Positions 2,251-63,703 of a DNA stretch of 64,000 nt are shown piece by piece. Where the stretch lies: contig JAIUMY010000001.1 in assembly GCA_022565335.1 (NCBI GenBank), forward strand, positions 7,817 to 71,816, read 5' to 3'. Position 1 is the stretch's first letter. Every line of letters starts with the position of its first letter. The position numbers and the translations under genes are program-made. Source of the stretch: Opitutales bacterium. Lineage in GTDB: Bacteria; Verrucomicrobiota; Verrucomicrobiia; Opitutales; T3Sed10-336. Under the pieces are notes generated by a model that saw nothing but the letters and a program-made list of their open reading frames with translations, ran no database searches and was not told the DNA's origin.

Positions 2251-2265
2251 GCCCCCCCCTTTGGC

Positions 2266-3815: not shown

Positions 3816-3828
3816 AAGTAAACCGAAG

Positions 3829-4177: not shown

Positions 4178-4431
4178 ACGTTACCTTCACCCCGCAAGCT
4201 TGGGAGGATTACCTGTATTGGCAGAAAACCGATAAGAAAACCCTAAAGAGAATTCATCTGTTGATTCAGGATATTCAGCGTTCTCCCCATGAAGGTATCG
4301 GCAAACCAGAGGCCTTGGAATATAACTTGAGCGGCTACTGGTCCCGCCGGATCACCGAGGAACAGCGGATTGTCTACAAGCCATTCGAACGTGGAATCAC
4401 CTTTGTCCAGATGCGATACCACTATCAATAA
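4174..4431 (+). CDS. yoeB: YoeB/Txe-family toxin (ribosome-dependent mRNA interferase)
   Basis: The 85-aa product (WEDYLYWQKTDKKTLKRI..GIGKPEAL.YNLSGYWSRRITEEQRIVY..RYHY) is collinear with E. coli YoeB as remembered. Confidence 0.9.
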   Translation: MNVTFTPQAWEDYLYWQKTDKKTLKRIHLLIQDIQRSPHEGIGKPEALEYNLSGYWSRRITEEQRIVYKPFERGITFVQMRYHYQ

Positions 4432-4482
4432 AGGAATCTGATTCTATTTGAAGAAATCCTCCCGAAAGACTAGAAAAGCGTT

Positions 4483-5712
4483 ATGCCCGGAGCTTTTCAT
4501 ATTATGACCAAACCGGTCGGGGCGGCTTGCAATTTGGCTTGTCGTTATTGCTTTTACCTCGAAAAATCGGCCCTCTACCCAAAAAAGGAAGCGAGCCGGA
4601 TGAAGCCGGAGGTCCTGCGTGAATACATCCGGCAATATATCGAATCACAATCCACCCCGGAGGTAGTCTTCGCCTGGCAGGGCGGCGAACCCACACTGTA
4701 TGGGCTGGACGGTTTTCGCCGGATCGTTGCCTGGCAGGAGGAATTCGCCGGAGGCAAAAGCATCCGCAACTCCCTCCAAACCAATGGCACCCTCATCAAC
4801 AAAGAATGGGCAGGCTTTCTGCGGAAACACCAATTTCTGGTCGGCATCAGCATCGACGGGCCAGCCGATTTGCACGATACCTTCCGGGTGGACCGCCGGG
4901 GGGGCGCGACCTTTGCCGAGGTATTGCGGGGCCTCAAACTCCTGCGCAAACACCAGGTGGAATTTAACACCCTGACCGTGGTCAATCGCCGCAACGCCCG
5001 GCACCCGGACCGGATTTATGACTTTTTGGACAAAATCGGCTCCCGCTTTTGGCAGTTCATTCCCGTAGTGGAGCGAATGCCGACGGACGGCGCCTCCTGC
5101 CAGAGCCCGGGCCCCACCCTCTCCCCGGCTCCCTCGCCGGGTCAACCCTCCGACGAACGCGCCAAAGTCACCCCGTGGAGCGTCAACCCCCGGGAATACG
5201 GCGACTTCATGTGCCGGATCTTCGACCGCTGGGTGGCCAAGGACGTCGGCCGGATTTTTGTCCAGGCTTTCGATACCGCCTTTGCCCAGTGGCTCGGCCA
5301 GCCCTCCCCGCTATGTGTCCACGCCAGGGAATGCGGCAACGCCATGGCGATGGAATACAACGGCGATTTGTATGCCTGCGACCACTACGTCTATCCCGAC
5401 CACCGGCTGGGCAATCTGATGAAAACCCCTTTATCGGAACTCGCCAAAGACCCGAGGCAAATCGCCTTTGGCCAAGCCAAGGCCACCACCCTTCCGGAGA
5501 AATGCCGTCAGTGCCCCTGGCTTTTTGCCTGTGCCGGAGGCTGCCCCAAACAACGTTTTGTTCCGCCCGAAAAAGGGACTCACCCGGAAAACTACCTGTG
5601 CGAAGGCTATTTTCATTTTTTTGAACACATCGACCCCGCCATGCGAACCATGGCCGAACTCTACCAGAGAGGTCTGCCTCCAGCCCAGATTATGAAAACC
5701 GGAATCTTGTAG
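4483..5712 (+). CDS. Anaerobic sulfatase-maturating enzyme (radical SAM/SPASM)
   Basis: CNLACRYCFY CxxxCxxC cluster near the N-terminus. Cys-rich SPASM region (CVHARECGN..YACDHY, CRQCPWLFACAGGCP). Confidence 0.85.
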   Translation: MPGAFHIMTKPVGAACNLACRYCFYLEKSALYPKKEASRMKPEVLREYIRQYIESQSTPEVVFAWQGGEPTLYGLDGFRRIVAWQEEFAGGKSIRNSLQTNGTLINKEWAGFLRKHQFLVGISIDGPADLHDTFRVDRRGGATFAEVLRGLKLLRKHQVEFNTLTVVNRRNARHPDRIYDFLDKIGSRFWQFIPVVERMPTDGASCQSPGPTLSPAPSPGQPSDERAKVTPWSVNPREYGDFMCRIFDRWVAKDVGRIFVQAFDTAFAQWLGQPSPLCVHARECGNAMAMEYNGDLYACDHYVYPDHRLGNLMKTPLSELAKDPRQIAFGQAKATTLPEKCRQCPWLFACAGGCPKQRFVPPEKGTHPENYLCEGYFHFFEHIDPAMRTMAELYQRGLPPAQIMKTGIL

Positions 5713-5748
5713 CGTCCGCTAATCTTTCCCCGTTCACATCTCTGCCCC

Positions 5749-8370
5749 ATGACCGACAACCACCCCCACTCCCTCCCCTCGGGACAAGCCCCCATCTCCA
5801 CCGGACACGCGGGACTCGACACCCTGATCGACCGCTTTCGCCTTGGCGATAACGTCGTTTGGCATGTGGATTCGTTGGAGGATTACCGGTATTTTGCCAA
5901 CTTGTTTGTGCAGGAGGCACGGGCCAAGAAGGCGCGGGTGATCTACATTCGTTTCGGGGAACACGATGAGATTGTTGATTCCTCCCTGGACGGGGTGGAA
6001 ACCATTCAATTGGACCCTTCCCGGGGCTTTGAACAATGCACCGAAGAGGTGACCATGCTGGCCACCAAAAACGGCGAGGAGGTTTTCTATGTCTTCGATT
6101 CCCTCACCGAATTGGTCCGCCCCTGGTCCACCGATGAACTGGTCGCCAACTTCTTTCAAACCGCCTGTCCCCTTTTATTCGAACTTCGCACCATCGCCTT
6201 TTTTGCGCTCCAGCGGGGACACCATTCCAATCAGACCATTGCCCGTATCTACAACACTACCCAGGTATTTGTGGAATCGTTTCACCACCAGGGAGAGCGT
6301 TACATGAAAATGATCAAGGTCTGGGATCGCTACTCCTCCACCATGTTTTTCACCCAGCGGGTGGTCGGCGATCGCCTCGAACCCGTTTTCGATCAGCTGA
6401 AAAACCTGGGGGCCTCGGACGATGTGGAACCCAGCGCGGAATCGCCCTGGGACACCCTGCAAGGGCGCTTGGATCATGTGGAACAAGTTGGCGTTGAGAA
6501 AATTCCGCCCGAGGATCTGGCCGCCTTGCGTCATGAATTCTCCCGTCTCCTTATCGGCCGTCACCCGGTTTTCACCCAACTGGCCGACCGGTATTTCACC
6601 ATTGAATCCCTTTTCTCGATACGCCAAAGGCTGATCGGCAGCGGCCGTATCGGGGGCAAGGCGGTAGGCATGTTACTGGCAAGGGAAATTCTCAAGGATG
6701 AGCGCGACGGGCTGCAGGACCCCGGTGTTTTGGCGGATCATGACTCGTTTTATATCGGCTCCGATGTTTTCTATACCTTTATCGTCCGCAATGACCTTTT
6801 CCGTCTGCGCCTGGAACGCACCCGAGCCACTCCCGACAAAGACCAATGCCCCGATTTTGAAACCGTGGAGCAACGTTTCCTCGCCGGCTCATTCCCCCCG
6901 ATGATTGCTTCGGAACTGCGAAGCATGCTCGAATACTTCGGTGAAAATCCCATCATCGTGCGCTCCAGTAGTCTTTTGGAGGATAGTTTCGGCGGAGCTT
7001 TTGCCGGCAAATACCGGAGCGAGTTCTGTCCCAACCAAGGTTCCCTGGAACAACGCATGGAGCAGCTTACTCAGGCCATCAAGCTGGTTTATGCCAGTTC
7101 CCTCAGCGATGATGCCATTTCCTACCGCCGCCGTCGTAGTCTCGAAGGCAAAGAGGAACTCATGGCTATCCTGGTGCAAAAAGTTGCCGGCACCCGTCAT
7201 CGACAATACTTTTTTCCTTCCTTGGCCGGAGTCGCCTTATCGCGAAATTTGTATTGCTGGAATGACCGTATCGATCCGCACAAAGGGGTGGTTCGCCTGG
7301 TTTTTGGCCTGGGCACACGGGCTGTCGACCGGGTGGGCGGGGATTATCCCCGCCTGATTGCCTGCAGCCACCCACACCTGCGCCCCGAGGTGGGGGCCGA
7401 AGCCGCCAAATACTCCCAGCACGAAATGGATGTCCTGGACCTCGAAACCAACACCTTCCGTACCTTGCCCGTGTTTGATGTGGTAGAGAGGGCCCACTAT
7501 CCGAATTTCCACTACATGGTCTCCATTCGGCATGAGGATTACCTGGAGGATCCCTTCAGCCGTTTTCTCGACCCTAACGCGGAATACAGTCTTTCCTTCA
7601 ACAACCTTCTTCGCCGCACCTCTTTCGCCCGCCTGGTCTCCGAAGCCTTGCAAGCCCTCGAAAAAGCCTATGGTCATCCGGTGGACGTGGAATTTACCGC
7701 CGCCATCGAAAAAGGAGGAGCCTTGCAGTTCAACCTGCTGCAATGTCGTCCCCTCTGGAATGAGAGCAAAGCCAAACCGGTTGAGTTTCCGAAAAACCTT
7801 CCTGATGAAAAAGTCCTCTTTACCGCCGACCGGGTCATTACCGGTGGGGTGGTGGAAAATATTCGCTACATCGTTTATATCGATCCCGAGACCTACGATA
7901 ACATTCCCTACCCGCCCGACCGCAAAATGCTGGGCCGGGTGGTCGGACGCCTCAACAGTCACCCGCTTTTTGCCAAGCACCCTTTCATCCTCATGGGACC
8001 CGGCCGTTGGGGCAGCGGCAATGTGGACCTGGGAGTAAATGTCAGTTATGCCGATATCGACAACACCAATGTGTTGATCGAATTATCCACCGAAAGCGAG
8101 GGACATTCCCCCGAAGTATCCTACGGGACTCACTTCTTCCAGGACCTGGTAGAGGAGAAAATCATTTATTTACCGGTTTTCACCGAAAAACCAGACTCAC
8201 GCTTCCAACACAAATTTTTCCTTCAATCGCCCAACCGGTTGGCCGAGCTTCTGCCCGAATACGAAACTCTAACCGAGGCCATCCGGGTAATCGATCTACA
8301 CGCCGAAAACCAAAACGGCCGCCTCGTCGCCGACGCCCGCAACCAAAAGGCCATCCTGTTTCTGGAATAA
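5749..8370 (+). CDS. PEP/pyruvate-binding (PPDK_N ATP-grasp) domain protein with degenerate KaiC/RecA-like N-terminal domain
   Basis: IGSGRIGGKAVGMLLA and VRSSSLLEDSFGGAFAGKYRSEF match the PpsA/PPDK nucleotide-binding domain. There is no TSHA-type phospho-His motif. The N-terminal STGHAGLDTLIDRFRLGDNVVW resembles KaiC-type ATPases but lacks a P-loop. Confidence 0.7.
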   Translation: MTDNHPHSLPSGQAPISTGHAGLDTLIDRFRLGDNVVWHVDSLEDYRYFANLFVQEARAKKARVIYIRFGEHDEIVDSSLDGVETIQLDPSRGFEQCTEEVTMLATKNGEEVFYVFDSLTELVRPWSTDELVANFFQTACPLLFELRTIAFFALQRGHHSNQTIARIYNTTQVFVESFHHQGERYMKMIKVWDRYSSTMFFTQRVVGDRLEPVFDQLKNLGASDDVEPSAESPWDTLQGRLDHVEQVGVEKIPPEDLAALRHEFSRLLIGRHPVFTQLADRYFTIESLFSIRQRLIGSGRIGGKAVGMLLAREILKDERDGLQDPGVLADHDSFYIGSDVFYTFIVRNDLFRLRLERTRATPDKDQCPDFETVEQRFLAGSFPPMIASELRSMLEYFGENPIIVRSSSLLEDSFGGAFAGKYRSEFCPNQGSLEQRMEQLTQAIKLVYASSLSDDAISYRRRRSLEGKEELMAILVQKVAGTRHRQYFFPSLAGVALSRNLYCWNDRIDPHKGVVRLVFGLGTRAVDRVGGDYPRLIACSHPHLRPEVGAEAAKYSQHEMDVLDLETNTFRTLPVFDVVERAHYPNFHYMVSIRHEDYLEDPFSRFLDPNAEYSLSFNNLLRRTSFARLVSEALQALEKAYGHPVDVEFTAAIEKGGALQFNLLQCRPLWNESKAKPVEFPKNLPDEKVLFTADRVITGGVVENIRYIVYIDPETYDNIPYPPDRKMLGRVVGRLNSHPLFAKHPFILMGPGRWGSGNVDLGVNVSYADIDNTNVLIELSTESEGHSPEVSYGTHFFQDLVEEKIIYLPVFTEKPDSRFQHKFFLQSPNRLAELLPEYETLTEAIRVIDLHAENQNGRLVADARNQKAILFLE

Positions 8371-8551
8371 CAGAGGGGGCAGATTCCCTTTTGTAAAACC
8401 TCCGTTTGGGCTTTCATCCTAAATTTGCCTTGGATGAGATGGGAACCACAAGCCCAACAAGAGTGACACAGGTTATTCGCAATGGTGGTCCTCTGAAAAA
8501 CATTCGACTATTTCCGCCGCGACAATATGGTCACCCTCGAATCCTGACTCC

Positions 8552-9451
8552 TCAATACAAATAGCCAGTTTTTAACAATGTATCCTCTCCTAAACTACAA
8601 AAGACGCGCTCTTCGACGGCCTTCTTGTCCTCGCCGGAAAACCCATCGGGCAAAAAGGCAAAACACGCACTGCCACTACCGGTCATTTGCAGAGTAAGGC
8701 CGAATTCCTCGAAAAACTGCCGGCCCAAAACCGGCAACGCGGGGTACTTTTCCGCCACCAATGGATACAAGTCGTTGGGCAGACCCTGAATTTGCTCAAC
8801 GTTGGCCAAACGTTTCGTTTCCGCGTGACGCCATTTCTCAGGGGAAACCTGGTTGGCTTCCGTGGTTTTCAACGCTTTGTTCCGCCATTTCTGAAAGGCC
8901 CACGCCGTGGGAACTGAAAAATAGGGTTTTAAAACCAGTACCCGCTGATGGTGAAGTTTTTGGTACAGGGACTCGGCCAAAGGCTGAAGGATCTCCCCCC
9001 TCCCCAAAAAGCCAACTGCCCGACCTTCGGTAAAGAGGGGACAATCCGACCCCAGGGTGGCGGCCATAGCGATCCGTTCGGGCTTGGACAATCGTTCTCC
9101 GGACAAAGCCTCCAAACCAAGAAGGGTCTGTACGGCATTACTGCTTCCCCCGCCCAAACCGGCTTCCACGGGCAGGTTTTTTTGCAGATGCAAACGAACC
9201 GGCGGGAGCTGCGGGAATTTTTTACGGAAAGCCATAACGGCCCGATAAACCAGATTTGCCTCGTCTGCGGGCAAGTCCGCGCCACTGATCTCCAATTCAA
9301 CCGGACTCTTGCCCGGTGACCATTCCAGCGAAAGCTCATCCCCCCAATCCAACAGCGCGACCAGGGAGGACAATTCATGAAACCCATCCTCCCGATGCGG
9401 TCCGACCCGAAGGGAAAGATTGATTTTTGCCGGACAAAAACGGGTGATCAT
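8552..9451 (-). CDS. ispE: 4-diphosphocytidyl-2-C-methyl-D-erythritol kinase
   Basis: CPAKINLSLRVGPHREDGFHEL and the GLGGGSSNA GHMP loop. 4-nt overlap with the upstream gene. Confidence 0.9.
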   Translation of the reverse strand: MITRFCPAKINLSLRVGPHREDGFHELSSLVALLDWGDELSLEWSPGKSPVELEISGADLPADEANLVYRAVMAFRKKFPQLPPVRLHLQKNLPVEAGLGGGSSNAVQTLLGLEALSGERLSKPERIAMAATLGSDCPLFTEGRAVGFLGRGEILQPLAESLYQKLHHQRVLVLKPYFSVPTAWAFQKWRNKALKTTEANQVSPEKWRHAETKRLANVEQIQGLPNDLYPLVAEKYPALPVLGRQFFEEFGLTLQMTGSGSACFAFLPDGFSGEDKKAVEERVFCSLGEDTLLKTGYLY

Positions 9452-52051: not shown

Positions 52052-54595
52052 ATGCACGAAAAGGAAGCCACAGCTCGGATCAAAATCAACCGCCTCCTCG
52101 AAGAAGCGGGCTGGCGCTTTTTCGCTGAAGGCGGACAAATGGCCAATATTCAACTCGAACCTGCCATTCCCATCCAATCCACCGACCTGGAAAATCTCGG
52201 CGAGGATTTTGAGAAAACGAAAAAAGGGTTCGTTGATTTTCTCCTCCTCGACTCCAAAGGCTTCCCCCTTCTCGTCCTCGAAGCCAAGGCTGAAGGCAAA
52301 AACCCACTGGTGGGCAAGGAACAGGCCCGAAAATATGCCCGCTCCCAAAACTGCCGGTTTGTCATCCTCTCCAACGGCAATCTGCACTACTTTTGGGATC
52401 TCGAACGGGGCAACCCCTACCTGATCACCACATTTCCTTCACCGGTTTCCGTCGAGGGCTACCGGCAAACCGTTGCCCCCGACCCCAAACGCCTCGCCGC
52501 CGAACCAGTTAAGGACGACTATATTGTTTTGACCCAAAGACCCGGCTATGAGAGCGAGGCCGCCTGGAAGAACGAAACCGAGCGCCCCGACTTTATCCGC
52601 GAAAACAAGCTCTGCTTTCTTCGCCCCTACCAACTCAAAGCCCTCCACCGCCTTCAGTCCACCGTCGGCGCTAGCAAGGACCGCTTCCTCTTCGAAATGG
52701 CCACCGGCACTGGCAAGACTCTCACCGCTGCCGCCGTCATCAAACTCTTTCTCCGCACCGGCAACGCCCGCCGGGTGCTTTTTCTCGTGGACCGCCTCGA
52801 GCTGGAGGACCAGGCCAAAAAAGCCTTCTCCGGCCTTCTCTCCGCTGATTTCCAAACCGTCATCTATAAGGAAAACCGCGACGACTGGCGGAGGGCCGAG
52901 ATTGTCGTCACCACCGTCCAGTCACTTCTCTTCAATAATAAATTCCAGCGGCTCTTTTCTCCAACCGATTTCGACCTCGTGATTTCCGATGAAGCCCATC
53001 GCTCCATCGGCGGTAATGCCCGTGCGGTCTTTGAATACTTTATCGGCTACAAACTGGGGCTCACCGCTACCCCCAGGGACTACCTGCGCAAGTTTGACCC
53101 GGACCAAACCACGACCAAAGACCCGCGCGAGACCGAACGTCGCCTTCTCCTCGACACCTACCGCACCTTTGGATGCGAGAGTGGCCAACCAACTTTCCGC
53201 TACTCCCTCCTCGATGGGGTCAAAGACGGTTACCTCATCAACCCCACCGTCGTGGATGCCCGCTCTGAGATCAGCACCCAACTCCTTTCCGAAAGCGGCT
53301 TTGTCGTTACCGTCACCGACGACACCGGAGAGGACAAAGAAGAGGCCTATCGCCAACGCGAATTCGAAAAACGCTTTTTCTCCGATGCCACCAATCAGGT
53401 TTTCTGCAAAGCCTTTCTCGAAAACGCCCTCCGCGATCCGGTCAGCGGCGAAATCGGCAAGTCCATCATCTTCGCCGTCAGCCAAAACCATGCTGCCAAA
53501 CTCGCCCAAGTGCTCAACGAGATGGCCCACCGCATGTTTCCCGGCAAATACCAGTCCGACTTCGCCGTGCAGGTCACATCCTCCATTCCCGATGCCCAGC
53601 AGTTCACCATTAACTTCGCCAACAACAACCTCCTCGGCTCCGGCAACTTCATTCCCGCCTACAAAACGAGCAAGGCCCGCGTCTGCGTCACCGTCGGCAT
53701 GATGACCACCGGTTACGATTGCACCGACATCCTCAACCTCGGCCTCTTCCGTCCCATCTTCTCGCCCACCGATTTCATCCAGATCAAGGGCCGCGGAACC
53801 CGCAAACATAACTTCCTCGAACACCTCTTCGAAGATTCCCTCCGGGACGTTATCACGGAACCAACCAAGACCGCCTTCAAACTCTTCGATTTCTTCGCCA
53901 ACTGCGAATACTTCGAGGAAGAATTCAACTACGACGAAGTGCTCAAGCTCCCCCCACCCCGGAAGAAAGGGGGCAAGGGCGGTGTCGATGATGGCCCCAC
54001 CGCCCCCGACGGACTCTACGAGCACCTTGGTGACGACCTCATCGCCACCGTCAAAGAGGAAGCCATCGGCGAAGACGGGATGAAAATCGACCGCATGTTC
54101 TTCGAGAAATTCGAAGAAACCGTGCGCGAGGACCCCGAAATCGTCAGCGCCGTCGAAGCCGGCCAGTGGGACCGCGTCATCGACTACGTCAACCGCGAGG
54201 TCTTCGACAAACCCGAGGAATACTACAACCTCGAGAAACTCCGCAAAGCCGCCTCCGTGGACCGCCGGGTGACCCTGCGCGAGATTCTGGAAAAAGTCTT
54301 CGGACTCATTCCCCGCTTCAAAATGAAGGACGAGTTACTCGAAGAGGAATTCGCCAAATTCGTCACCGACCACACCCCTGACGAGCCGACCACCATCCCT
54401 GCCATCAAACACTTTTTCAAAGCCTACCTTACCAGTGGACGCCTCCGCGACATCATTGACCAGCGCCACTACACCGACCTCGCCACCAACCCCGCCTTCT
54501 CCACCCGCGACTTCAAAGCCGTCCCGCCCAAATTCCGCACCCTCGTCCCCGAATACATCAAGGACTACGTCAGCCTCAACCAATTCGCAGCGTAG
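52052..54595 (+). CDS. hsdR: Type I restriction enzyme R subunit (COG4096/EcoEI-like)
   Basis: N-terminal nuclease core VDFLLLD..LVLEAK. Helicase motif I EMATGTGKT and motif II VISDEAHRS, plus later SF2 motifs. Confidence 0.9.
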   Translation: MHEKEATARIKINRLLEEAGWRFFAEGGQMANIQLEPAIPIQSTDLENLGEDFEKTKKGFVDFLLLDSKGFPLLVLEAKAEGKNPLVGKEQARKYARSQNCRFVILSNGNLHYFWDLERGNPYLITTFPSPVSVEGYRQTVAPDPKRLAAEPVKDDYIVLTQRPGYESEAAWKNETERPDFIRENKLCFLRPYQLKALHRLQSTVGASKDRFLFEMATGTGKTLTAAAVIKLFLRTGNARRVLFLVDRLELEDQAKKAFSGLLSADFQTVIYKENRDDWRRAEIVVTTVQSLLFNNKFQRLFSPTDFDLVISDEAHRSIGGNARAVFEYFIGYKLGLTATPRDYLRKFDPDQTTTKDPRETERRLLLDTYRTFGCESGQPTFRYSLLDGVKDGYLINPTVVDARSEISTQLLSESGFVVTVTDDTGEDKEEAYRQREFEKRFFSDATNQVFCKAFLENALRDPVSGEIGKSIIFAVSQNHAAKLAQVLNEMAHRMFPGKYQSDFAVQVTSSIPDAQQFTINFANNNLLGSGNFIPAYKTSKARVCVTVGMMTTGYDCTDILNLGLFRPIFSPTDFIQIKGRGTRKHNFLEHLFEDSLRDVITEPTKTAFKLFDFFANCEYFEEEFNYDEVLKLPPPRKKGGKGGVDDGPTAPDGLYEHLGDDLIATVKEEAIGEDGMKIDRMFFEKFEETVREDPEIVSAVEAGQWDRVIDYVNREVFDKPEEYYNLEKLRKAASVDRRVTLREILEKVFGLIPRFKMKDELLEEEFAKFVTDHTPDEPTTIPAIKHFFKAYLTSGRLRDIIDQRHYTDLATNPAFSTRDFKAVPPKFRTLVPEYIKDYVSLNQFAA

Positions 54596-54600
54596 GAGAA

Positions 54601-55031
54601 ATTATGAAGGATGAATTATGAGTTATGAAGTGGTAGATGAAATACCGTGGATGGTTGAGGAGGGACAGCAGGATCTTCGAGGGCGAACGAAGGACTTTGC
54701 GCTGCGGGTGATACGGCTGTTTGGGGCACTTCCAAAGTCCACGGAAGCCCAGATTATCGGCAAGCAGGTTCTGCGGTCCGGAACTTCCGTTGGTGCCAAC
54801 TACCGCGAAGCTTGGCGTGCCCGGTCCAAAGCGGAGTTTCTTGCCAAATTAGGCGACTGCCTGAAGGAACTCGACGAAACAGCCTACTGGCTAGAACTCC
54901 TTGTTGATGCAGAAATCGTTCCTGTGGCAAAACTCAATGCCCTCCAGGATGAGACGGACCAACTCCTAGCCATCTTCACCACTATCGCCAAACACACCAA
55001 ACAAAACCCTTCATAATTCATCCCTCATAAT
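54601..55031. repeat. 21-nt inverted repeat pair enclosing the four-helix-bundle gene
   Basis: attatgaaggatgaattatga (54601-54621) is the reverse complement of tcataattcatccctcataat (55011-55031), 20/21 matching. Confidence 0.85.
54618..55016 (+). CDS. Four-helix-bundle protein (23S rRNA intervening-sequence protein family)
   Basis: KDFALRVIRL..QVLRSGTSVGANYREA..SKAEFLAKLGDCLKELDETAYWLELL, the family pattern as recalled. Confidence 0.85.
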   Translation: MSYEVVDEIPWMVEEGQQDLRGRTKDFALRVIRLFGALPKSTEAQIIGKQVLRSGTSVGANYREAWRARSKAEFLAKLGDCLKELDETAYWLELLVDAEIVPVAKLNALQDETDQLLAIFTTIAKHTKQNPS

Positions 55032-55044
55032 TCATAATTCTTCC

Positions 55045-57603
55045 ATGCTCGACTCTTCCACCAAACGCCGCATCGACACCGCCCGCGACATCCTTGTCGG
55101 CAAAGTTCCCGACCCTAAATCGCAGGTCGAGCAGATCACCATTGCCCTGATCTACAAGTTCATGGACGACATGGACGCCGAGGCCGAGGAATTCGGCGGC
55201 GAGCGCAAGTTCTTCGCGGGCGAATACGCCCGCTACGGCTGGGCCAAGCTCCTGCGCGGCGGGCTGGGCGGCCACGAGGCCCTCAACCTCTACACCGAGG
55301 CCATCGCCAAGATGCCGGAAAACCCCGGCATCCCGCCGCTCTTTCGCGACATCTTCAAGAACGCTTTCCTCCCCTACCGCGACCCCGAAACCCTCCGCGC
55401 CTTCCTCAAGATCATCGACGAGTTCGAATACGACCACTCCGAACGCCTCGGCGACGCCTTCGAATACCTCCTCTCCGTCCTCGGTTCCCAGGGCGACGCC
55501 GGACAATTCCGCACCCCCCGCCACATCATCGACTTCATCGTCGAACTCCTCGACCCGAAAAAACACGAAACCATTCTCGACCCCGCCTGCGGCACCGCCG
55601 GTTTCCTGATTTCGGCTTACAAGCACATCCTCAAAAACAACAGCACCCCCGAGGCGGTTGAAGACAAACCCGTCGATGAAAACGACAAAGCCGCCCTGGA
55701 CTCCTCCCGCATCCCGCCCGCCCGCGGTGACCTCCTCACCCCCGACGAACGCGCCAACCTCGCCAAAAACATTCGGGGCTACGACATCTCCCCCGACATG
55801 GTGCGGCTCTCTCTCGTCAACCTTTACCTCCACGGCTTCAACGACCCGCACATCCACGAATACGACTCCCTCACCAGCCAGGAACGCTGGAACGAGTACT
55901 CCGACGTCATCCTCGCCAACCCGCCCTTCATGTCGCCGAAGGGCGGCATCAAGCCCCACAACCGCTTCCCCGTCCAGAGCAAGCGCAGCGAGGTACTCTT
56001 CGTCGATTACATCGCCGAGCACCTCACCCCCGGCGGACGAGCCGGGATCATCGTCCCCGAGGGTATCATCTTCCAGGGCCAGACCGCCTACAAAAACCTC
56101 CGCAAGATGCTCGTCGAGGACTCCCTCGTCGCCGTCATCTCCCTCCCCGCCGGCGTCTTCCAGCCCTATTCGGGGGTCAAAACCAGCATCCTCATCCTCG
56201 ACAAAACCCTCGCCAAACAAGCCGACACCATAGCCTTCTTCAAAGTCGAAAACGACGGCTTCGGCCTCGGCGCCCAACGGCGGCCGATTGAGAAGAACGA
56301 CCTGCCGGATGCCTTGGAGGCAATGAAGAAGTATCAACAGAAGGTTGAAGGTGGACGGATGAAGGATGAAGTGAATCCCCTCAACCCTCAACCTTCATCC
56401 CTCATCCTTGTGCCGAAATCAAAGATTTCGGCAAACGGCGAATACAACCTCAGCGGCGAGCGGTATCGGGAGGTGGTGGCGGCAAGCCATTCGTTTCCGA
56501 TAGTCCCTCTCGGCGAGAAAAGCCTGTTTCGAGTCGAAAGCGGCGGCACCCCAAAGTCTGGAGTTGAAGAGTATTGGAACGACGGCATTCCTTGGGCTAC
56601 ACTTGTCGATCTTCCGGCTACCGACTTTATTTCGGAAATAAGGGCAACCACACGCACGATCTCGGAGAAAGGGCTCCGGGCGTCCTCGGCGAAAATGATT
56701 CCGGCAAATTCGGTGATAGTCTCGACTCGTGCAACTATCGGCCGCATCGCCATCAATCGTGTTCCAATTGCAACGAACCAAGGCTTCAAGAACGTCGTGA
56801 TCGAAAACCCAACTCGGGCTATGCCTGAGTATGTGGCCTTTGCGCTCACCAAACTTGTCCCAACAATGAAAGATTGGGGAACCGGCGGTACCTTCGCAGA
56901 GATCTCAAAGACCAAGTTCTGCGAACTCCAAATCCCCCTTCCCCCGCTGGAGGTGCAGAAGGAAATCGTGGCCGAGATCGAAGGCTACCGGAAAGTCATC
57001 GACGGCGCCCGCGCCGTCCTCGACAACTACCGCCCCCACATCCCCATCCACCCCGACTGGCCAATGGTGGAGTTGGGGGAGGTGTGTGAACTCTACCAAC
57101 CAAAGACGATTGGACAGAATGACTTTGTCCCAGATGGACCGTACTTGGTTTTTGGCGCTAATGGTGTCATTGGTCGTTACAATCAATATAACCACGAGCA
57201 AGCTGAAGTCATTATTACGTGCCGAGGGGCGACATGTGGCACCGTGAACAAGTCCGAACCGAAATCATGGATAACAGGGAACGCAATGGTTGCAAAACCT
57301 AAGAATGCGAAATTATCCAAGGATTTCTTGTTCTCCTTACTGAAAGGGTCCGACTTGAGTCCGACGATTTCTGGGTCGGCGCAACCCCAGATTACACGAC
57401 AGGGTCTCGCACCTTTCAAAATTCCTCTCCCGCCCCTCGAAACCCAACGTGCTATTGTCGCCGAAATCGAAGCCGAACAAACCCTCGTCAACGCCAACCG
57501 CGACCTCATCGCCCGCATGGAAAAGAAAATCCAAGCCACCCTTGCACGGGTATGGGGAGAAGCAGAGAAGGATGATGGTGGAGGGATGAGGGATGAGGGA
57601 TGA
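55045..57603 (+). CDS. hsdM: Type I R-M methyltransferase fused in-frame to a two-TRD specificity subunit (HsdM-HsdS)
   Basis: N-terminal half has RDILVGKVPDPKSQVEQIT, DPACGTAGFL (motif I) and ILANPPFMSP (motif IV). C-terminal half has two TRDs, each followed by a conserved helix (PLPPLEVQKEIVAEIEGY, PLPPLETQRAIVAEIEAEQ). Confidence 0.85.
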   Translation: MLDSSTKRRIDTARDILVGKVPDPKSQVEQITIALIYKFMDDMDAEAEEFGGERKFFAGEYARYGWAKLLRGGLGGHEALNLYTEAIAKMPENPGIPPLFRDIFKNAFLPYRDPETLRAFLKIIDEFEYDHSERLGDAFEYLLSVLGSQGDAGQFRTPRHIIDFIVELLDPKKHETILDPACGTAGFLISAYKHILKNNSTPEAVEDKPVDENDKAALDSSRIPPARGDLLTPDERANLAKNIRGYDISPDMVRLSLVNLYLHGFNDPHIHEYDSLTSQERWNEYSDVILANPPFMSPKGGIKPHNRFPVQSKRSEVLFVDYIAEHLTPGGRAGIIVPEGIIFQGQTAYKNLRKMLVEDSLVAVISLPAGVFQPYSGVKTSILILDKTLAKQADTIAFFKVENDGFGLGAQRRPIEKNDLPDALEAMKKYQQKVEGGRMKDEVNPLNPQPSSLILVPKSKISANGEYNLSGERYREVVAASHSFPIVPLGEKSLFRVESGGTPKSGVEEYWNDGIPWATLVDLPATDFISEIRATTRTISEKGLRASSAKMIPANSVIVSTRATIGRIAINRVPIATNQGFKNVVIENPTRAMPEYVAFALTKLVPTMKDWGTGGTFAEISKTKFCELQIPLPPLEVQKEIVAEIEGYRKVIDGARAVLDNYRPHIPIHPDWPMVELGEVCELYQPKTIGQNDFVPDGPYLVFGANGVIGRYNQYNHEQAEVIITCRGATCGTVNKSEPKSWITGNAMVAKPKNAKLSKDFLFSLLKGSDLSPTISGSAQPQITRQGLAPFKIPLPPLETQRAIVAEIEAEQTLVNANRDLIARMEKKIQATLARVWGEAEKDDGGGMRDEG
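56357..56407. repeat. Cargo-less inverted repeat (hairpin) at the M/S domain junction
   Basis: ggatgaaggatgaag (56357-56371) pairs with cttcatccctcatcc (56393-56407), 14/15, with a 21-nt loop. Confidence 0.85.
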
Positions 57604-58069
57604 AGGTGCAGTGGCGGAGCCTAGCGGGAAACCCGAACGGATGGTCGCGGAAGCGGCGGCGGGGTATAAAAAAAGTCCATATAATCGAGGAAACTGACTT
57701 TAGCTTGACCTTTGAAAACTTAAATATGAACATTAGATCACCGTGGCGAAGCTGAAAAATACCAAGGATTTTATTGTCCTGCTACTGCACGCGCTAGATA
57801 AGGCGGAGCAGCCGAACCACCTCATTTCCGGGCAAACGCGGTTGATCGCGCCTATGTTTGTTTGCCCCGAAAACAGATCATTCCAGAGATGCAATCAGAA
57901 GCCGAAGATACCGGCATCGGTCTCTTGCGTTCCAAGACAACGAGGCATGGCCGTTTTCCATCGCCGTTCCAGCAAAGGAATCCCCAGTGCTCTCCCCAAA
58001 GTTACTGAACGGCCATTGAGCAGTATCTTTGATATCTATGGCGGCAACAACAAATAGAAAGCTATACCG

Positions 58070-61000
58070 ATGGATCACACCCACATTGTTCAATCAAGCG
58101 ACTTGGACCGTTATGCACCAACGAGGGAAAGCCAAGCGGTAATCCCAGAGTTGGTTTATTGGCTCGTAAAGCAGTCCTGTGCCGATATCACAGCCTGTCG
58201 GATTCCTTATGGCGATGCAGTGAACCAACCAGGTTGGGATGGCATGGTTGAATCCGAAGCAGGATTTTTCGAGTTTGTTCCAAAGGGTAAATCGTTTTGG
58301 GAAATAGGAACAGGAGCCGATGCACAGAGCAAAGCAACCGAAGATTTTAGAAAGCGAACCCAACAAATGGATGACGAGGAACGTGCGAATTCTTCATTCG
58401 TCTTCGTAACCCCCCGCAGGTGGGATGAGCCCGAGCTGACAGCGTGGATAGCACGAAGAAAAGACAAGGGATGGAAGCAGATTCGGGTCATTGATGGCGT
58501 CAAACTCGCTGATTGGCTACGAGAACATCCGGCCGTCGGAAAATGGATGGCCAAGAAACTTAATTTAACGACGAACCTCGGTGGGATAGCGACTGCATCC
58601 GAACACTGGGACGATATAGTTTCGGAGAGCGCTGGTGACGATCCGCCCTTGCCACCTAAACTATTTACTATCGGAAGGACAGGAGCATCTGATGCATTAC
58701 AGGCTCTATTCGAGGGAAAAAAACAGGTTCTTATGTTCTTCGCCCAAAGCCCACAGGATGTCGCTGATTTTATCTCGGCCTTTTTGGCTGGATTGGAAAC
58801 TGAGACGTTTCGAGATTACAACAATAGGTGCCTTTACATAAACGATGAACAGGCGTGGCGTAGCATTGTTGAAACCCGCCTTCCCCACGTTTTGGTTGCT
58901 GACTCACGTCTCGGACTGGAGACCGAGGAAGGTGCTACGCTTCAGACAATTGCTCGGCGAAGAGGACATGCTGTGGTTGTCCCACTCTGTGGATATTGGG
59001 CAGGTGATAGCCCGGAAACCCTAAAACTACCTAGTCCTTCGCAATCGCAGATTGAGTCAGCCCTCAAAGAATCAGGATACACCGAAATACGTGCCAGAGA
59101 ACTTGGGAGGATAGGCGGTGATCGAATTTCAGCACTTCTCCGCTACCTGCGAGGCTATGGAAATCTGCCTCCATACGCATCATGGAACAATGCGACTCTA
59201 ATCGCGCAAGCAGGGCTAGTTGGTAAGTGGGATGGATCCAGCCCCGCAGATCGATCCGCCTTGGAGAAGTTGCTGGGAAAAAGTTATGGGGAGTGGATCG
59301 AGATTCTGAGGCCTGACACGCTTCGCTCGGACTCTCCCCTGATTCAACGTGACGAAAAGTGGCGATTTGTTGCGCGCGGCGAGGCGTGGAAGTTTCTTGG
59401 AAATCGGATTACGGATGATGACTTAGATAGGTTCCGGATGACAGCGGTTGCTGTTTTGAGTGAGATAGACCCTAAATTTGACCTTCCAAAGGAAGAACGA
59501 TATGCCGCGAGTATTCATGGGAAAGTGCTCAATCATTCCCACCTGATTAGAAAGGGAATTGCTGAGACGCTAGCTTTGATGGGAAGTTTTCCGACGGCAT
59601 TGACTTCGTGCAGCGACGGGAAGGCGACAGCCATCGCTGTTCTGGTTGTGCACAAGCTGTTGAACAAGGCGAATTGGGATCGCTGGGCCAGTCTGGATTC
59701 AATTATGCCGCTTTTGGCCGAAGCCGCGCCCGACGAGTTTCTCGATGCTGTGGAATCTGTCCTTATCGACCTATCCGACACGCCTTTCCACAAAGTTTAT
59801 GCAGAAGAGGGAGGCGGTGGATTGGGAAGCTGGAACTATATGAGCGGACTTCTTTGGGCGCTGGAGACCTTGGCGTGGAGTCCCAAATATCTCTCCCGCG
59901 TGTCAGTCATCCTAGCTGATATTGCGTCGTTCGATCCCGGGGGAAACTGGACAAATCGCCCTTCAAATTCTTTGGCAGACATTTTCTTGCCGTGGCATTT
60001 CCAAACCACTGCGCGATTTGAAAAGCGTAAAGCGGCTGTTGAAGCAGTGATAAAAGAGCATCCGTCGGTGGGCTGGAGGCTTCTCTTGGCATTGTTGCCG
60101 CACAACCATGGTTTCACCAGTGGGTGTCATCGCCCTGTCTGGCGGGACTTCATCCCTCGAGACTGGAAAGATGGTGTGCTAAGAAGCGAATATTGGGAGC
60201 AGATCACCGCCTACACCGACCTCGCTGTAGCACTAGCTAAGAGTGACTCAGGAAAGCTTTGCGAGCTTATCAAGAGGCTGTCCGATTTGCCAAGGGCGGC
60301 GCACGAAAGTCTCCTGGAGCACCTTGCTTCGGACGAGATCGTATCGTTGCCCGAGGAAGATCGCATGCCTCTGTGGGAGAATCTTGATGGGCTGGTTAGA
60401 AATCACCGGAAGTTCGCAGATGCTGATTGGGCAATGCCCGAAGAGGTGGTCTGCAAAATTGCCGAAACCGCTAAATTACTCGCACCAGTTTCACCCGCAT
60501 TTAAATTCCATCACCTATTCAGTGGCAGGGATTTCGACTTGTATGACGAAAAGGGAGATTACGATGAGCAACGAAAGCGGCTCGACGAAGCCCGCCAAAC
60601 CGCCATTTCTGAGATTTTAGATGCTGATGGAATTGATGCAGCTTTGCAGTTTGCCTCCAAAGTCGACGCTCCTTACGAAGTCGGTCGAGCGCTTGGATTG
60701 ATCTCTACAGATGAGATAGAGGGGTTAATATTACCAAGTATTTTAGATTCTGAAGACGACATATTAGTTCGAGTTGTCGCCGGATTCATTTGGAGGCGTT
60801 TCTGGGAACTCAAAACGGACTGGGTGGATAGAGTTCTTGAACGGGGCTGGTCGGCGGAGCATCAAGCCAAATTCCTGACGTTACTCCCTTTTGAAGAAGC
60901 GATATGGGAGCGGGTGTCAACGAAGCTGGGAGCCTCTCACGAGTCGCTGTATTGGAAAAATGCAAGGGTTAATCCTTACGGGCGAGACCGAGATCTATCG

Positions 61001-61873
61001 TTTGCAATTGAAAAGTTACTCGAATACGGACGCGAAGGGGCAGCAGTTATGTGCGTTGCCCACACAGCAGATGATGAATCACGGTTCGATGAATCGCTAG
61101 CCACACGTGCTCTTCTGGCGGTCCTTGAAAATAAGAATGGAATTAAAGAGTTGGACAACTATCAGACCGTCGAATTGATCAAGCATCTTCAGGAGTCCAA
61201 AACAGCTGATAAAGATGCCCTTTTCCAAATTGAATGGAATTTTCTCCCTTGGCTGGATAGCTTCTCATCTGGATCGCCAGTTACTTTGGAAAAGCGGCTG
61301 GCGTCGGATCCAGCTTTTTTCGCGGAAGCTATTGGTCTCGTGTTCCGCTCTAAGAACGCAAGTGAGGATAGTGAAAACGAGCAAATTGAAAACAAAAAGC
61401 ATCTTGCCATGAACGCTTACAAACTCCTGACGAATTGGAAGCATTGCCCCGGCATACAAGATGATGGATCGTTTTGCGCCGATGCATTTGATGCATGGCT
61501 AAGTGAGACTCGCAGGTTAACCGAGGAGTCGGGCCATGTAGAGGTTGCGCAAATCCAGATTGGTCATGTATTGACATGTGCCCCACCAGATCCCGACGGG
61601 CTCTGGATCCACTCTGCGGTAGCTGATGCATTGAACTTTCGCGACACAGGAGAGATGCGATCTGGATTCACAACTCAACTCTTCAATGATCGTGGAGTTC
61701 ACGGATTCACTCACGGTGAAGAGGAACGACAACTTGCAAAGCAGTATCGGGAGAAAGCCGATGCTCTTGATGCAAGAGCCTACACACGTTTCGCAGCTGC
61801 AATGCGTGAGTTCGCTGAACAATACGAACGAGATGCTGAACGCCAAGCTAACCGTGATCCTTTCGAAGATTAA
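58070..61873 (+). CDS. Large hypothetical protein (1267 aa), no NTPase motif, mostly helical
   Basis: Uninterrupted ORF in an AT-richer segment. I found no GxxxxGK[ST]. The N-terminal ~170 aa (PGWDGMVES..KGKSFWEIGT..FVFVTPRRW) is distinct from the long helical remainder. Confidence 0.7.
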   Translation: MDHTHIVQSSDLDRYAPTRESQAVIPELVYWLVKQSCADITACRIPYGDAVNQPGWDGMVESEAGFFEFVPKGKSFWEIGTGADAQSKATEDFRKRTQQMDDEERANSSFVFVTPRRWDEPELTAWIARRKDKGWKQIRVIDGVKLADWLREHPAVGKWMAKKLNLTTNLGGIATASEHWDDIVSESAGDDPPLPPKLFTIGRTGASDALQALFEGKKQVLMFFAQSPQDVADFISAFLAGLETETFRDYNNRCLYINDEQAWRSIVETRLPHVLVADSRLGLETEEGATLQTIARRRGHAVVVPLCGYWAGDSPETLKLPSPSQSQIESALKESGYTEIRARELGRIGGDRISALLRYLRGYGNLPPYASWNNATLIAQAGLVGKWDGSSPADRSALEKLLGKSYGEWIEILRPDTLRSDSPLIQRDEKWRFVARGEAWKFLGNRITDDDLDRFRMTAVAVLSEIDPKFDLPKEERYAASIHGKVLNHSHLIRKGIAETLALMGSFPTALTSCSDGKATAIAVLVVHKLLNKANWDRWASLDSIMPLLAEAAPDEFLDAVESVLIDLSDTPFHKVYAEEGGGGLGSWNYMSGLLWALETLAWSPKYLSRVSVILADIASFDPGGNWTNRPSNSLADIFLPWHFQTTARFEKRKAAVEAVIKEHPSVGWRLLLALLPHNHGFTSGCHRPVWRDFIPRDWKDGVLRSEYWEQITAYTDLAVALAKSDSGKLCELIKRLSDLPRAAHESLLEHLASDEIVSLPEEDRMPLWENLDGLVRNHRKFADADWAMPEEVVCKIAETAKLLAPVSPAFKFHHLFSGRDFDLYDEKGDYDEQRKRLDEARQTAISEILDADGIDAALQFASKVDAPYEVGRALGLISTDEIEGLILPSILDSEDDILVRVVAGFIWRRFWELKTDWVDRVLERGWSAEHQAKFLTLLPFEEAIWERVSTKLGASHESLYWKNARVNPYGRDRDLSFAIEKLLEYGREGAAVMCVAHTADDESRFDESLATRALLAVLENKNGIKELDNYQTVELIKHLQESKTADKDALFQIEWNFLPWLDSFSSGSPVTLEKRLASDPAFFAEAIGLVFRSKNASEDSENEQIENKKHLAMNAYKLLTNWKHCPGIQDDGSFCADAFDAWLSETRRLTEESGHVEVAQIQIGHVLTCAPPDPDGLWIHSAVADALNFRDTGEMRSGFTTQLFNDRGVHGFTHGEEERQLAKQYREKADALDARAYTRFAAAMREFAEQYERDAERQANRDPFED

Positions 61874-61914: not shown

Positions 61915-62079
61915 ATGCCCTGGCAACAACAGTTCCAAACCGAGCACAGCAATAGCCAGGTGCTTGGCTATCTGGACGCTTCGAGGGAGGCTTTTCGGCG
62001 GTATTTCCGGGAGGCGGGTGCCGACGAAGATAAAGACTCCCCACCACAAAGACGCGGAGATCGGAAGGATTTACTTTAA
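61915..62079 (+). CDS. Possible 54-aa small ORF, below the track cut-off
   Basis: My translation is MPWQQQFQTEHSNSQVLGYLDASREAFRRYFREAGADEDKDSPPQRRGDRKDLL. Its TAA stop abuts the next ATG (TAAATG at 62077-62082). Confidence 0.35.
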   Translation: MPWQQQFQTEHSNSQVLGYLDASREAFRRYFREAGADEDKDSPPQRRGDRKDLL

Positions 62080-62553
62080 ATGAGTCGCTTTCCCTACAAC
62101 GCTTTCCAGATTGAAGAAATTGTGCAGGTTGAAAAACACCCGCGCGATTGGGAACCGATTGAATTCGAGAAGGGACAACGAGGCAACCAATCCCGCCTCG
62201 CTGATGTCCAGTTGCTCCGGGAGGATGCCCGAACCGACCGACTCCGATTGATTATTCGCGCTGGACGGGTGAATCAGCCAGAAACCTTTGCGGCGGCGCT
62301 CCTTTTGGAAAACACGAAGATTCGGGGAATCGATTTCCATCCTATGGAGCGACGGAAGTGGTATGGAAAGGTCGCGATCCCAGCTGGCTGGCACCAGGAT
62401 GTGATCGACCCCAATCTCGATCAGTCCGATTTGAACTACCAGCGCAGATTGCCTGTCGAAGATTTTGAGCCTTACGATTTAGTGGACTTTTTGAAGCGAG
62501 TCTCCACCATCTGGAATATCACCTTGCCAAATCAATCCGATTATCTACTATGA
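62080..62553 (+). CDS. Hypothetical protein (157 aa)
   Basis: ORF with a 4-nt ATGA overlap to the next gene. No motif recognised. Confidence 0.65.
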   Translation: MSRFPYNAFQIEEIVQVEKHPRDWEPIEFEKGQRGNQSRLADVQLLREDARTDRLRLIIRAGRVNQPETFAAALLLENTKIRGIDFHPMERRKWYGKVAIPAGWHQDVIDPNLDQSDLNYQRRLPVEDFEPYDLVDFLKRVSTIWNITLPNQSDYLL

Positions 62554-63338
62554 GCATCGACAAAACTGAACTCACCAACACCTTGCGCGCTGCGTTCGCG
62601 TCCTTTTGGGAGGAACAGCTCCAGGTTGAGGCTGTTGCCGGTGGATTAGCTGTTTCGCCACCGCTGCTTTATGCGGACGGTTGGCAGGTGACCATCTACC
62701 TCGAACAACTAACGCCCAAGCAATGGCGGATCACCGACCGGGGAGCGACCTTGGGCAAACTGCTCGATGCCGGACTCCAACCTGACCAGGGAAAGCTGGC
62801 AACTTTGATTCAGCGACAAACGTCTTTCTACGGGTTTGACCGTGACGGCCTGCAGTTCGAAAAACTGGTGCGGTTTCCCTTCGAAGTCGCGGAAATACAG
62901 ATTTTCGCTGAAGGACTGATCGCTCTCTCCCATCAAATGCCAAAGGTCCCCAAGGAAATCATTCCCGGCACGGAACACATGATTGAGGATCGCATTGCCT
63001 CGTTTTTCTACAACCGCCGCCTCACCCCGCTCCGGCGGCACAAACTTGCCGGGCAGGTGGAACGGGAGATCACCGTTGATTTTTATCTCGAAGGTCCGCA
63101 GCCCTTGGCTCTCCAACCGGTCACCCGGGCGCGGAATCTGCGCCCTTACATGGAACAGTGGGGATGGCGCTGGACCGATCTCAAGAATCGGCATCCCGAT
63201 ATGATCCGCGCCATGATTTACGATCCCGACAACCAGCCTTGGGACGAAGCCTCGCTGAACATCGGCCGGGAGGTTTGCACCATTTTCGCACCTTACCATG
63301 AAACCGATGCGGCCTTGAGTGCCGCCTTGACGGCTTGA
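62550..63338 (+). CDS. Hypothetical protein (262 aa), possibly DUF1828/DUF1829-like
   Basis: The N-terminal pattern LYADGWQVTIYLEQL..WRITDRGATLGKL recalls DUF1828. This is a memory-based call, not searched. It overlaps both neighbours by 4 nt. Confidence 0.55.
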   Translation: MSIDKTELTNTLRAAFASFWEEQLQVEAVAGGLAVSPPLLYADGWQVTIYLEQLTPKQWRITDRGATLGKLLDAGLQPDQGKLATLIQRQTSFYGFDRDGLQFEKLVRFPFEVAEIQIFAEGLIALSHQMPKVPKEIIPGTEHMIEDRIASFFYNRRLTPLRRHKLAGQVEREITVDFYLEGPQPLALQPVTRARNLRPYMEQWGWRWTDLKNRHPDMIRAMIYDPDNQPWDEASLNIGREVCTIFAPYHETDAALSAALTA

Positions 63339-63703
63339 AATCGATGAGCTTGCTCAATCAACTCCACCAACTGGCCCATGAATGCGCCAACGACAACTGG
63401 GATGGCTATGGTGCCGAAGCCGTGAATGCAGCGACTCTGGCGTGTGCGGAGGCGTTTGTCCGGGCTTTGCCCGAGGAAATTCCTTTACCAGAGATTTCCG
63501 CAGAGCCGGATGGCGCGATCACATTCGACTGGATGCCGCTTCCAACCAAATCCTTCACCCTCAGTGTTAGCGGAAGCAACCGTCTTGCCTATGCCTGGAT
63601 CGACGGGACAGACCGAGGACACGCTGCTGTAAAATTTGCCGAGGCAAAGATTCCTTCCTGCGTGCTCACCGAAATTAAACGCCGATGTGTCCTTTCGTGC
63701 TGA
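63335..63703 (+). CDS. Hypothetical protein (122 aa)
   Basis: ORF coupled by a 4-nt overlap. Contains NDNWDGYGAEAV..PEISAEPDGAITFDW. No assignable family. Confidence 0.6.
   Translation: MKSMSLLNQLHQLAHECANDNWDGYGAEAVNAATLACAEAFVRALPEEIPLPEISAEPDGAITFDWMPLPTKSFTLSVSGSNRLAYAWIDGTDRGHAAVKFAEAKIPSCVLTEIKRRCVLSC

Follow-up and report, generated by a model that had tools for sequence, protein, structure and literature searches.

The distal end of a Type I restriction-modification (R-M) island was analyzed in a stretch of 64,000 nucleotides (hereafter the window) from a metagenome-assembled genome (MAG) of an Opitutales bacterium (Verrucomicrobiota), and a pair of overlapping genes encoding proteins of 157 and 262 amino acids (aa), spanning positions 62080-63338, was found there to be a conserved unit. 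Both products are exact matches to NCBI proteins of the MAG, encoded on a contig of 154,969 bp. The pair is a translationally coupled two-gene cassette, distributed mainly in Verrucomicrobiota and their relatives, that moves as a unit. A defence-type accessory role, to which a probability of about 0.5 is assigned, is its most likely reading and rests on genomic context. An original prediction, made from the letters of the window, had proposed that four small genes following a 1267-aa gene constitute an undescribed defence or toxin-antitoxin-like module. What survives of that proposal is an undescribed pair of the defence-island type, conserved, coupled and associated with R-M genes; the four-gene unit does not survive, and independent passenger genes, not one four-gene system, make up the mosaic at the distal end of the island.

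All four open reading frames (ORFs) were located on the forward strand where the prediction had placed them:

61915-62079, + strand, 54-aa ORF (LAT55_00240); ORF confirmed, orphan
62080-62553, + strand, 157-aa gene (LAT55_00245); ORF confirmed, first gene of the conserved pair
62550-63338, + strand, 262-aa gene (annotated in the MAG as a DUF1828 domain-containing protein); ORF confirmed, second gene of the pair
63344-63703, + strand, 119-aa gene (LAT55_00255); start at ATG 63344 according to NCBI and the Logan gene caller, 122 aa when read from TTG 63335

The 54-aa ORF does start 41 nt past the stop of the 1267-aa gene (61873), and both the TAA-ATG junction between the 54- and 157-aa ORFs and the ATGA overlap between the 157- and 262-aa genes are as described. 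The ATGA claimed for the last junction had to be corrected: the overlap reads TTGA if TTG 63335 is used, and a start at ATG 63344 leaves a 5-nt spacer after the stop of the 262-aa gene.

Homologues of the 262-aa protein were collected as 86 clusters, the contigs of which were read, and a scan of one genome per species yielded 48 loci. Fifty-eight loci (designated below by L and a number) were fetched for this family, and 47 distinct loci were used for the counts of the pair. A homologue of the 157-aa gene was found directly upstream of the 262-family gene, on the same strand, in 39 of the 47. The two genes are joined by a 4-nt overlap of the form NTGA (ATGA, GTGA or TTGA) in 31 of these 39 loci, and by an ATGGTAA-type overlap in at least four further ones. 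Since the overlap recurs across loci, the coupling that had been claimed for the whole chain of genes is more than chance for 157/262; this was not shown for the two other junctions. The two families also co-diverge, their pairwise identities being correlated over 33 loci with a Pearson r of 0.87, a value reached by none of 2000 permutations in a Mantel test. Nearly all of the 48 genome matches belong to Verrucomicrobiota, together with one Kiritimatiellota-type and two Hydrogenedentes genomes, and every one of them is a MAG. Comparison of the 157-, 262- and 122-aa proteins by tblastn with phage and plasmid collections returned no relatives, and the 262-family profile retrieved none from IMG/VR; thus, no scanned viral contig and no known plasmid was seen to carry the pair.

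No homologue of the 54-aa or of the 1267-aa product is encoded in any of the 58 loci. Co-occurrence of the 157-, 262- and 122-aa trio, which would be expected of a single system, is borne out for the first two genes and not for the third: among loci of the 262-aa family a 122-aa homologue (72% identity) is present only in the nearest relative, L008/L011, where the 157-aa gene is missing, and in the next closest relatives (73-74% identity) the pair is present and a 122-like gene is not. In L008, a contig of a sister Opitutales MAG (JAFIGH010000027.1), the order of genes over positions 1-7000 is DUF4145, DarT, DarG-like Macro protein, 1095-aa ResIII helicase, 166-aa Macro protein, 262-aa gene and 122-like gene. 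The Macro-domain gene that occupies the place of the 157-aa gene was considered as a divergent homologue of it and rejected, as BLASTP revealed no similarity and the gene proved paralogous to the macro domain of the adjacent DarG.

The genomic context of the pair was examined in the 47 loci, in which ORFs were called by a heuristic based on seeded ORFs and codon-position GC. Up to three neighbours per side were compared with Pfam, and neighbours were also clustered with the window's own Hsd proteins, 45 loci having usable context. Restriction or defence genes lie at most four genes from the pair in 20 of these 45 loci, in agreement with the predicted association of the small genes with a defence context. 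As Type I genes generally make up a small part of a genome, this adjacency would represent a large enrichment. Upstream neighbours carry mainly the Pfam domains N6_Mtase (7), Methylase_S (7), HsdM_N (5), Mrr_cat (4) and MmeI domains (3-4), and downstream neighbours mainly HSDR_N (8), SWI2_SNF2 (8) and T1R_D3-like domains (5). Type I methylase or specificity genes are situated upstream of the pair in 10 loci, and HsdR is encoded near it in 10, downstream in nine and, in L027, upstream on the opposite strand. Eight relatives (L002, L014, L015, L035, L037, L040, L042 and L050) have methylase and specificity genes upstream and hsdR downstream, all on the same strand, so that the pair is embedded in a multi-gene restriction system in the orientation of its genes. 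Gaps between the pair and the flanking hsd genes are often just 4-22 nt (e.g. L040, L042, L045), which fits co-transcription. In seven loci the pair adjoins a MmeI-like Type IIG enzyme, with a Mrr-like gene in between in three of them. One of the embedded loci, L002, holds genes for a HATPase_c protein (311 aa) and a DUF4325 protein (103 aa) at 7856-9099, between hsdS and hsdR and just upstream of the pair; it therefore has two passenger cassettes in one Type I operon. The large neighbours of the pair in L048 were considered as defence genes and found to encode RND efflux pumps.

The 262-aa product had been said to weakly recall DUF1828/DUF1829, and the first half of this assignment proved right: the protein scores 24.7 bits against Pfam DUF1828 (PF08861), above the gathering cut-off of 22 (E 3e-5), and DUF1828 was detected in 33 of 36 family members (E<=0.1). 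DUF1829 (PF08862) was found, at the same threshold, neither in the window protein nor in any of the 36 relatives. A literature search for DUF1828 yielded two mentions, both incidental. Residues 35-213 weakly match positions 27-205 of the 256-position PADLOC model PDC-M24B (E 1.7e-6, 25.8 bits), which has no curated cut-off, and there is weak similarity to two PHROGs of uncharacterised function. Searches of the Protein Data Bank (PDB) by sequence, with single proteins or with family profiles, returned nothing. The AlphaFold model of the protein has a predicted local distance difference test (pLDDT) score of 90.9, and Foldseek aligned its C-terminal half with PDB structures of Can2, Cdn1, Card1, AF1548, NucS/EndoMS, the R2 endonuclease domain and XisH (best E 2.7e-4), superposing it on PD-(D/E)xK domains with a probability of up to 1.00 over 114-142 aligned columns at a root-mean-square deviation of ~4 A. 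The model thus has the alpha-beta-beta-beta-alpha-beta core of restriction endonuclease-like folds. As the canonical D...(D/E)xK motif is not conserved, and the residues invariant in the family (W204, R207, W208, D210, Q229, D232 and C243) are found elsewhere, in the helix and loop that follow the canonical positions, the C-terminal domain appears from its model to be nuclease-like in fold, with catalysis uncertain or lost.

The 157-aa protein is beta-rich and was modelled by AlphaFold with a pLDDT of 89.4 and a predicted template-modelling score (pTM) of 0.83. It matches no model in Pfam, NCBIfam or PADLOC (E<=0.1 for PADLOC), and none of 44 family members matches PADLOC. Foldseek found no significant match for the model in the PDB (best E 0.58), and a single borderline one in BFVD, to A0A8S5NGZ0, an uncharacterised Siphoviridae protein (template-modelling score 0.6, E 1.3e-3). 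K19, R82, G83, G103, W104, H105, P111, F137 and W145 are invariant in the family, and D110 and N112 nearly so. To judge from this pattern of conservation, most of these residues (K19, R82, G83, G103, W104, H105, D110, P111 and N112) may make up a binding or active site.

We infer from these features that the 157- and 262-aa proteins would form a complex, acting as an accessory module against phages or other mobile DNA that is expressed with the restriction system. Recognition of nucleic acid would fall to the 262-aa protein, by way of DUF1828 and its restriction endonuclease-like domain; because the catalytic motif is degenerate, the latter domain may bind rather than cut. The 157-aa protein would be its obligate partner, either a catalytic or effector subunit or its regulator. 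The pair has repeatedly landed within or next to restriction systems, be it in the hsdS-hsdR interval of Type I operons or after MmeI-like Type IIG and Mrr-like genes.

A number of observations weigh against a defence role. No restriction or defence gene was detected within four genes of the pair in 25 of the 45 loci, and in the non-defence loci that were inspected (e.g. L001, L003, L048) it sits among housekeeping genes. In the window the pair lies beside the restriction system rather than within it, outside the hsdS-hsdR interval and downstream of hsdMS, with the 1267-aa gene in between. The gene calls in related loci are crude, being heuristic. The presence in L008/L011 of the 262-aa gene without the 157-aa gene implies that the pairing is not obligatory. 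The putative nuclease motif is another weak point, since the window protein has D177, Q189 and V191 at the canonical positions, as mapped by predicted secondary structure rather than by superposition. Across the 36 relatives position 177 is D in 27 and N in 8, position 189 is Q in 16, K in 11 and E in 8, and only V, I or L occurs at position 191; D177 is combined with E189 in just 7 of the 36. Finally, PDC-M24, whose second protein resembles the 262-aa product, is itself only a predicted candidate (bioRxiv 10.1101/2024.01.29.577857).

Three other explanations were weighed. The pair might be a toxin-antitoxin-type addiction module, with one toxic protein neutralised by the other, that stabilises the islands or mobile DNA around it, any effect on phages being secondary and exerted through abortive infection. 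Such a module would account for two small overlapping genes with conserved coupling and co-diverging families, for their sporadic distribution over variable contexts that include transposases (rve in L143, IS66 in L002) and for the many stand-alone copies. However, neither protein is similar to known toxin or antitoxin families in Pfam, NCBIfam or PADLOC, no DNA-binding domain of antitoxin type was detected, both proteins are larger than those of most type II pairs, and the retention by L008 of the 262-aa gene without the 157-aa gene is hard to square with either being an unopposed toxin. This explanation is therefore regarded as unlikely. Quite unlikely, too, is the absence of any defence role, with the pair being a lineage-specific factor of DNA metabolism or regulation, or selfish cargo that gathers at restriction loci on account of recombination hot spots there. 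The degenerate nuclease motif, the lack of a detected restriction or defence neighbour in over half of the loci and the cassette-type turnover of the island described below (an IVP gene with inverted repeats; cargo swapped relative to L069) would be in keeping with it. What argues against mere cargo is the ordered layout, in which the pair follows methylase and specificity genes and precedes hsdR on one strand and which in eight loci of different lineages amounts to more than loose co-location; moreover, a family present in only 48 of the species genomes scanned is a poor fit to a core function.

The remaining explanation, a guard in the manner of PrrC that the Type I enzyme would keep inactive and that would be set free once a phage anti-restriction protein knocks this enzyme out, draws on the position of the pair in at least eight loci, which is that of prrC (the hsdS-hsdR interval, in the same orientation and with short gaps), and on the report that PrrC is found almost only within Type I systems (Payne, Hughes, Fineran & Jackson 2024, bioRxiv 10.1101/2024.01.29.577857). 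Yet over half of the copies of the pair are not embedded, some associate with Type IIG and Mrr-like enzymes, neither of them Type I complexes, and the pair of the window is split from the hsd genes by the 1267-aa gene. As the pair also lacks homology to PrrC or RloC and has no ATPase domain, such a guard is considered very doubtful.

The gene downstream of the pair is of a different family. The 119/122-aa protein has no Pfam match and belongs to a large family (3143 representative clusters at E<=1e-3, with a usual length of ~180 aa) for which Pfam has no model. It matches the C-terminal part of PADLOC PDC-M32A (E 1e-4). In 80 metagenome loci of this family, a ~255-aa TIGR04255-family gene was found upstream in 45 and a ~137-aa PDC-M32B-like gene downstream in 34; genes for a Type III-like methylase and a UvrD-like helicase border the cassettes, and in some proteins (e.g. 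P0200) TIGR04255 is fused to the 122-family domain. None of these usual partners is present in the window, where the next gene, at 63869, is a TPR paralogue, and the adjacent B gene (~123-131 aa) that accompanies PDC-M32A in PDC-M32 is missing. Alignment of the DNA of the window with that of L008 gave a single block of 1129 bp (62545-63673, 82.5% identity) that covers the 262-aa and 119-aa genes only, and it is only in these two Opitutales genomes that the 119/122-aa gene is linked to the 262-aa gene. On sequence evidence, another restriction-embedded family has contributed this gene as a lineage-specific addition.

Two candidates for a distant DUF1828 relative among proteins that accompany the 122-aa family, the TIGR04255 partner (~255 aa) and a 303-aa protein of contig L069, were rejected, as hhalign gave a probability of 0.2% and hmmsearch found nothing. 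The metagenome loci also revealed a recurrent five-gene cassette (L061-L140; e.g. L116 290-6822, L119 206-6881) encoding a Type III-like methylase (~926 aa), a TIGR04255 protein (~255 aa), a 122-family protein (~180 aa), a PDC-M32B-like protein (~137 aa) and a UvrD/GajB-like helicase (~690 aa), in which the middle three genes overlap one another. At 50% identity, the ~180-aa family comprises >3000 clusters.

A more ambitious form of the defence reading can be offered tentatively. The pair would be a new anti-phage system of the Verrucomicrobia group working with restriction enzymes, with the 157-aa protein as a new effector or sensor and the 262-aa protein as a non-catalytic DNA-recognition subunit, and the 119/122-aa family would provide a plug-in regulatory subunit set on unrelated upstream proteins (DUF1828, TIGR04255, PDC-M63B-like). 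We regard this combination as possible rather than probable.

Upstream of the pair, the 54-aa ORF is annotated by NCBI and not by the Logan gene caller, forms a singleton cluster and has no homologue in the 58 and 80 loci or in nearest relatives L143-L145. Its sole signal is a weak N-terminal match of residues 1-32 to the 265-position PADLOC model PDC-M23A (E 1.1e-4). The ORF is probably not functional and its coding status is doubtful; given the PDC-M23A match, it may be a remnant of another embedded gene. The stretch of 206 nt between the 1267-aa and 157-aa genes has no Rfam match and an unremarkable RNA fold z-score of -0.42, and a scan for promoters and terminators was uninformative (one promoter-like site versus 4.2 expected).

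The 1267-aa gene, with which the small genes had been predicted to share an operon, was tried as a member of one system with the pair and rejected: its homologues are absent from the 58 pair loci and stand alone on plasmids. Its product is 76% identical over its full length to that of a stand-alone gene on the conjugative plasmid pSBAL17501 of Shewanella baltica BA175 and ~30% identical to the products of stand-alone Rhizobium plasmid genes, so the gene is viewed as a separately transferred module, and the former identity is taken to indicate its transfer between phyla. GC at third codon positions (GC3) is 0.48 in this gene, compared with 0.6-0.73 in neighbouring genes. The protein matches phrog_18693 (E 6e-166) and, weakly and partially, PD-Lambda-4_A (Avs8; E 1.8e-4). 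No NTPase domain was found in it by Pfam and no Walker A motif by eye; an identity as a STAND NTPase (PD-lambda-4/Avs8), for which the weak partial match is the only support, would be tentative at most.

The genes that precede the pair in the island were assigned as follows:

52052-57603, + strand, Type I R-M backbone, by Pfam and PADLOC matches; context for the passenger genes
52052-54595, + strand, hsdR, by Pfam/PADLOC
54618-55016, + strand, inserted 23S-rRNA-IVP-family gene, by Pfam/PADLOC
55045-57603, + strand, fused hsdM-hsdS, by Pfam/PADLOC
58070-61873, + strand, 1267-aa gene (LAT55_00235); independent neighbour, acquired horizontally

The order in the window is thus hsdR, IVP-family gene, fused hsdM-hsdS, 1267-aa gene and then the 157/262 pair. 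An ORF of 104 aa at 57743-58057, between hsdMS and the 1267-aa gene, is probably not a gene; it had no match in NCBIfam, the only library searched, and its exact sequence is absent from the protein collection. The island of ~12 kb is bounded by two paralogous TPR-type genes, and the N-terminal end of the 2332-aa TPR protein is matched by the gene that begins at 63869 (14 of 22 residues identical, E 2e-7), which upholds the view that the island interrupts a host neighbourhood of TPR paralogues. The lower GC attributed to the small genes relative to the flanks was found only in part: with a window mean of 0.55, GC is 0.50 in the 1267-aa gene and 0.51 in the 157-aa gene, both lower, and 0.567 in the 262-aa and 0.547 in the 122-aa gene, which are not.

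The restriction backbone itself bears marks of cassette turnover. The fused HsdM-HsdS protein (852 aa) contains N6_Mtase at residues 133-477 and two Methylase_S domains up to residue 806; comparable fusions are encoded in L014 (871 aa) and L025 (808 aa). The IVP-family gene is bracketed by inverted repeats (54600-54621 and 55011-55032) that are 95% complementary, and in related contig L069 the same hsdR is joined straight to hsdM without it; the gene therefore looks like an inserted cassette. Allowing one mismatch, the 11-mer TCATCCCTCAT occurs in eight copies in the window versus 1.3 expected, six of them at boundaries of restriction genes (54604, 55018, 56359, 56395, 57586 and 57593). The part of the fused hsdM-hsdS that encodes specificity lies between an inverted pair of the TCATCCCTCAT element (56377-56407 and 57584-57614), and a 34-nt copy follows hsdS in metagenome locus L061 (3022-3055); the element may be a cassette-junction or recombination element. 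Contig L069 (Ga0100393_10000503, 1-4760) encodes HsdR and HsdM proteins 72 and 67% identical, respectively, to those of the window and has different cargo, namely genes for products of 82 aa, 187 aa (PDC-M63A-like), 303 aa, 123 aa (a short member of the 122-aa family) and 136 aa (PDC-M32B-like). Passenger genes have therefore been exchanged on one and the same restriction backbone, and the locus illustrates how restriction islands are assembled from swappable cassettes.

Should a defence-type accessory role of the pair be true, it would provide a defence system from a phylum almost absent from experimental defence studies, the first functional handle for DUF1828 proteins and a protein fold without a solved relative, and it would support genes nested in restriction operons as a reliable source of new immune functions. 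The finding would be ordinary if the pair were instead inert cargo or an addiction module. Because all 48 genome matches are MAGs, the pair has been missed by catalogues based on RefSeq.

Genes that lie within Type I systems often turn out to be defence systems. The 145 PADLOC candidates of the PDC series were obtained through guilt-by-embedding, from genes nested in BREX, DISARM or Type I loci (bioRxiv 10.1101/2024.01.29.577857). One of them, PDC-M24, is a two-gene cassette, FAM_00129>>FAM_00065, with a second gene of ~256 aa of the DUF1828 type, and FAM_00065 also pairs with another upstream family (bioRxiv 10.1101/2024.01.29.577857), which provides a precedent for a variable first gene. The pair resembles PDC-M24 in being a two-gene cassette with a DUF1828-type second gene, although the match of the 262-aa protein to PDC-M24B is weak. 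It differs in its first gene, which matches neither PDC-M24A nor the other PADLOC models (0 of 44 members), and in its distribution, which is limited to MAGs of Verrucomicrobiota and relatives. As for PDC-M32, relatives of the 119/122-aa gene precede a PDC-M32B-like gene of ~137 aa and follow, or are fused to, a TIGR04255 protein, whereas the gene in the window follows a DUF1828 protein unrelated to TIGR04255 (hhalign 0.2%) and has neither partner. The nuclease-like half of the 262-aa model superposes on the PD-(D/E)xK domains of Can2, Card1, Cdn1, AF1548, NucS and XisH; unlike these, to which it shows no sequence similarity (the profile search of the PDB was empty), the protein has DUF1828 and not CARF at its N-terminus, and D...(D/E)xK is unconserved.

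PrrC, from the EcoprrI Type I system, is a co-oriented passenger between hsdS and hsdR, as is the pair in at least eight related loci. PrrC is, however, a single protein with ATPase and anticodon nuclease domains and has no similarity to the pair in sequence or fold, and the pair is often not embedded, that of the window not lying between hsdS and hsdR. TgvAB, which resides in a Type I locus of VPI-2 in Vibrio cholerae, is a type IV restriction system of two proteins that requires both genes and works together with the restriction system of its host (PMC11411939). Two genes embedded in a Type I operon are common to TgvAB and the pair, but TgvA and TgvB are large proteins of the GmrSD family, whereas those of the pair are small, with no homology found and, for one of them, without a known fold. 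With PrrC, TgvAB and the PDC candidates as Type I-embedded precedents, the pair fits the pattern of embedded defence genes, and it is a plausible defence candidate of a known kind, distinguished by a first gene new to PADLOC and by its phylum-restricted distribution.

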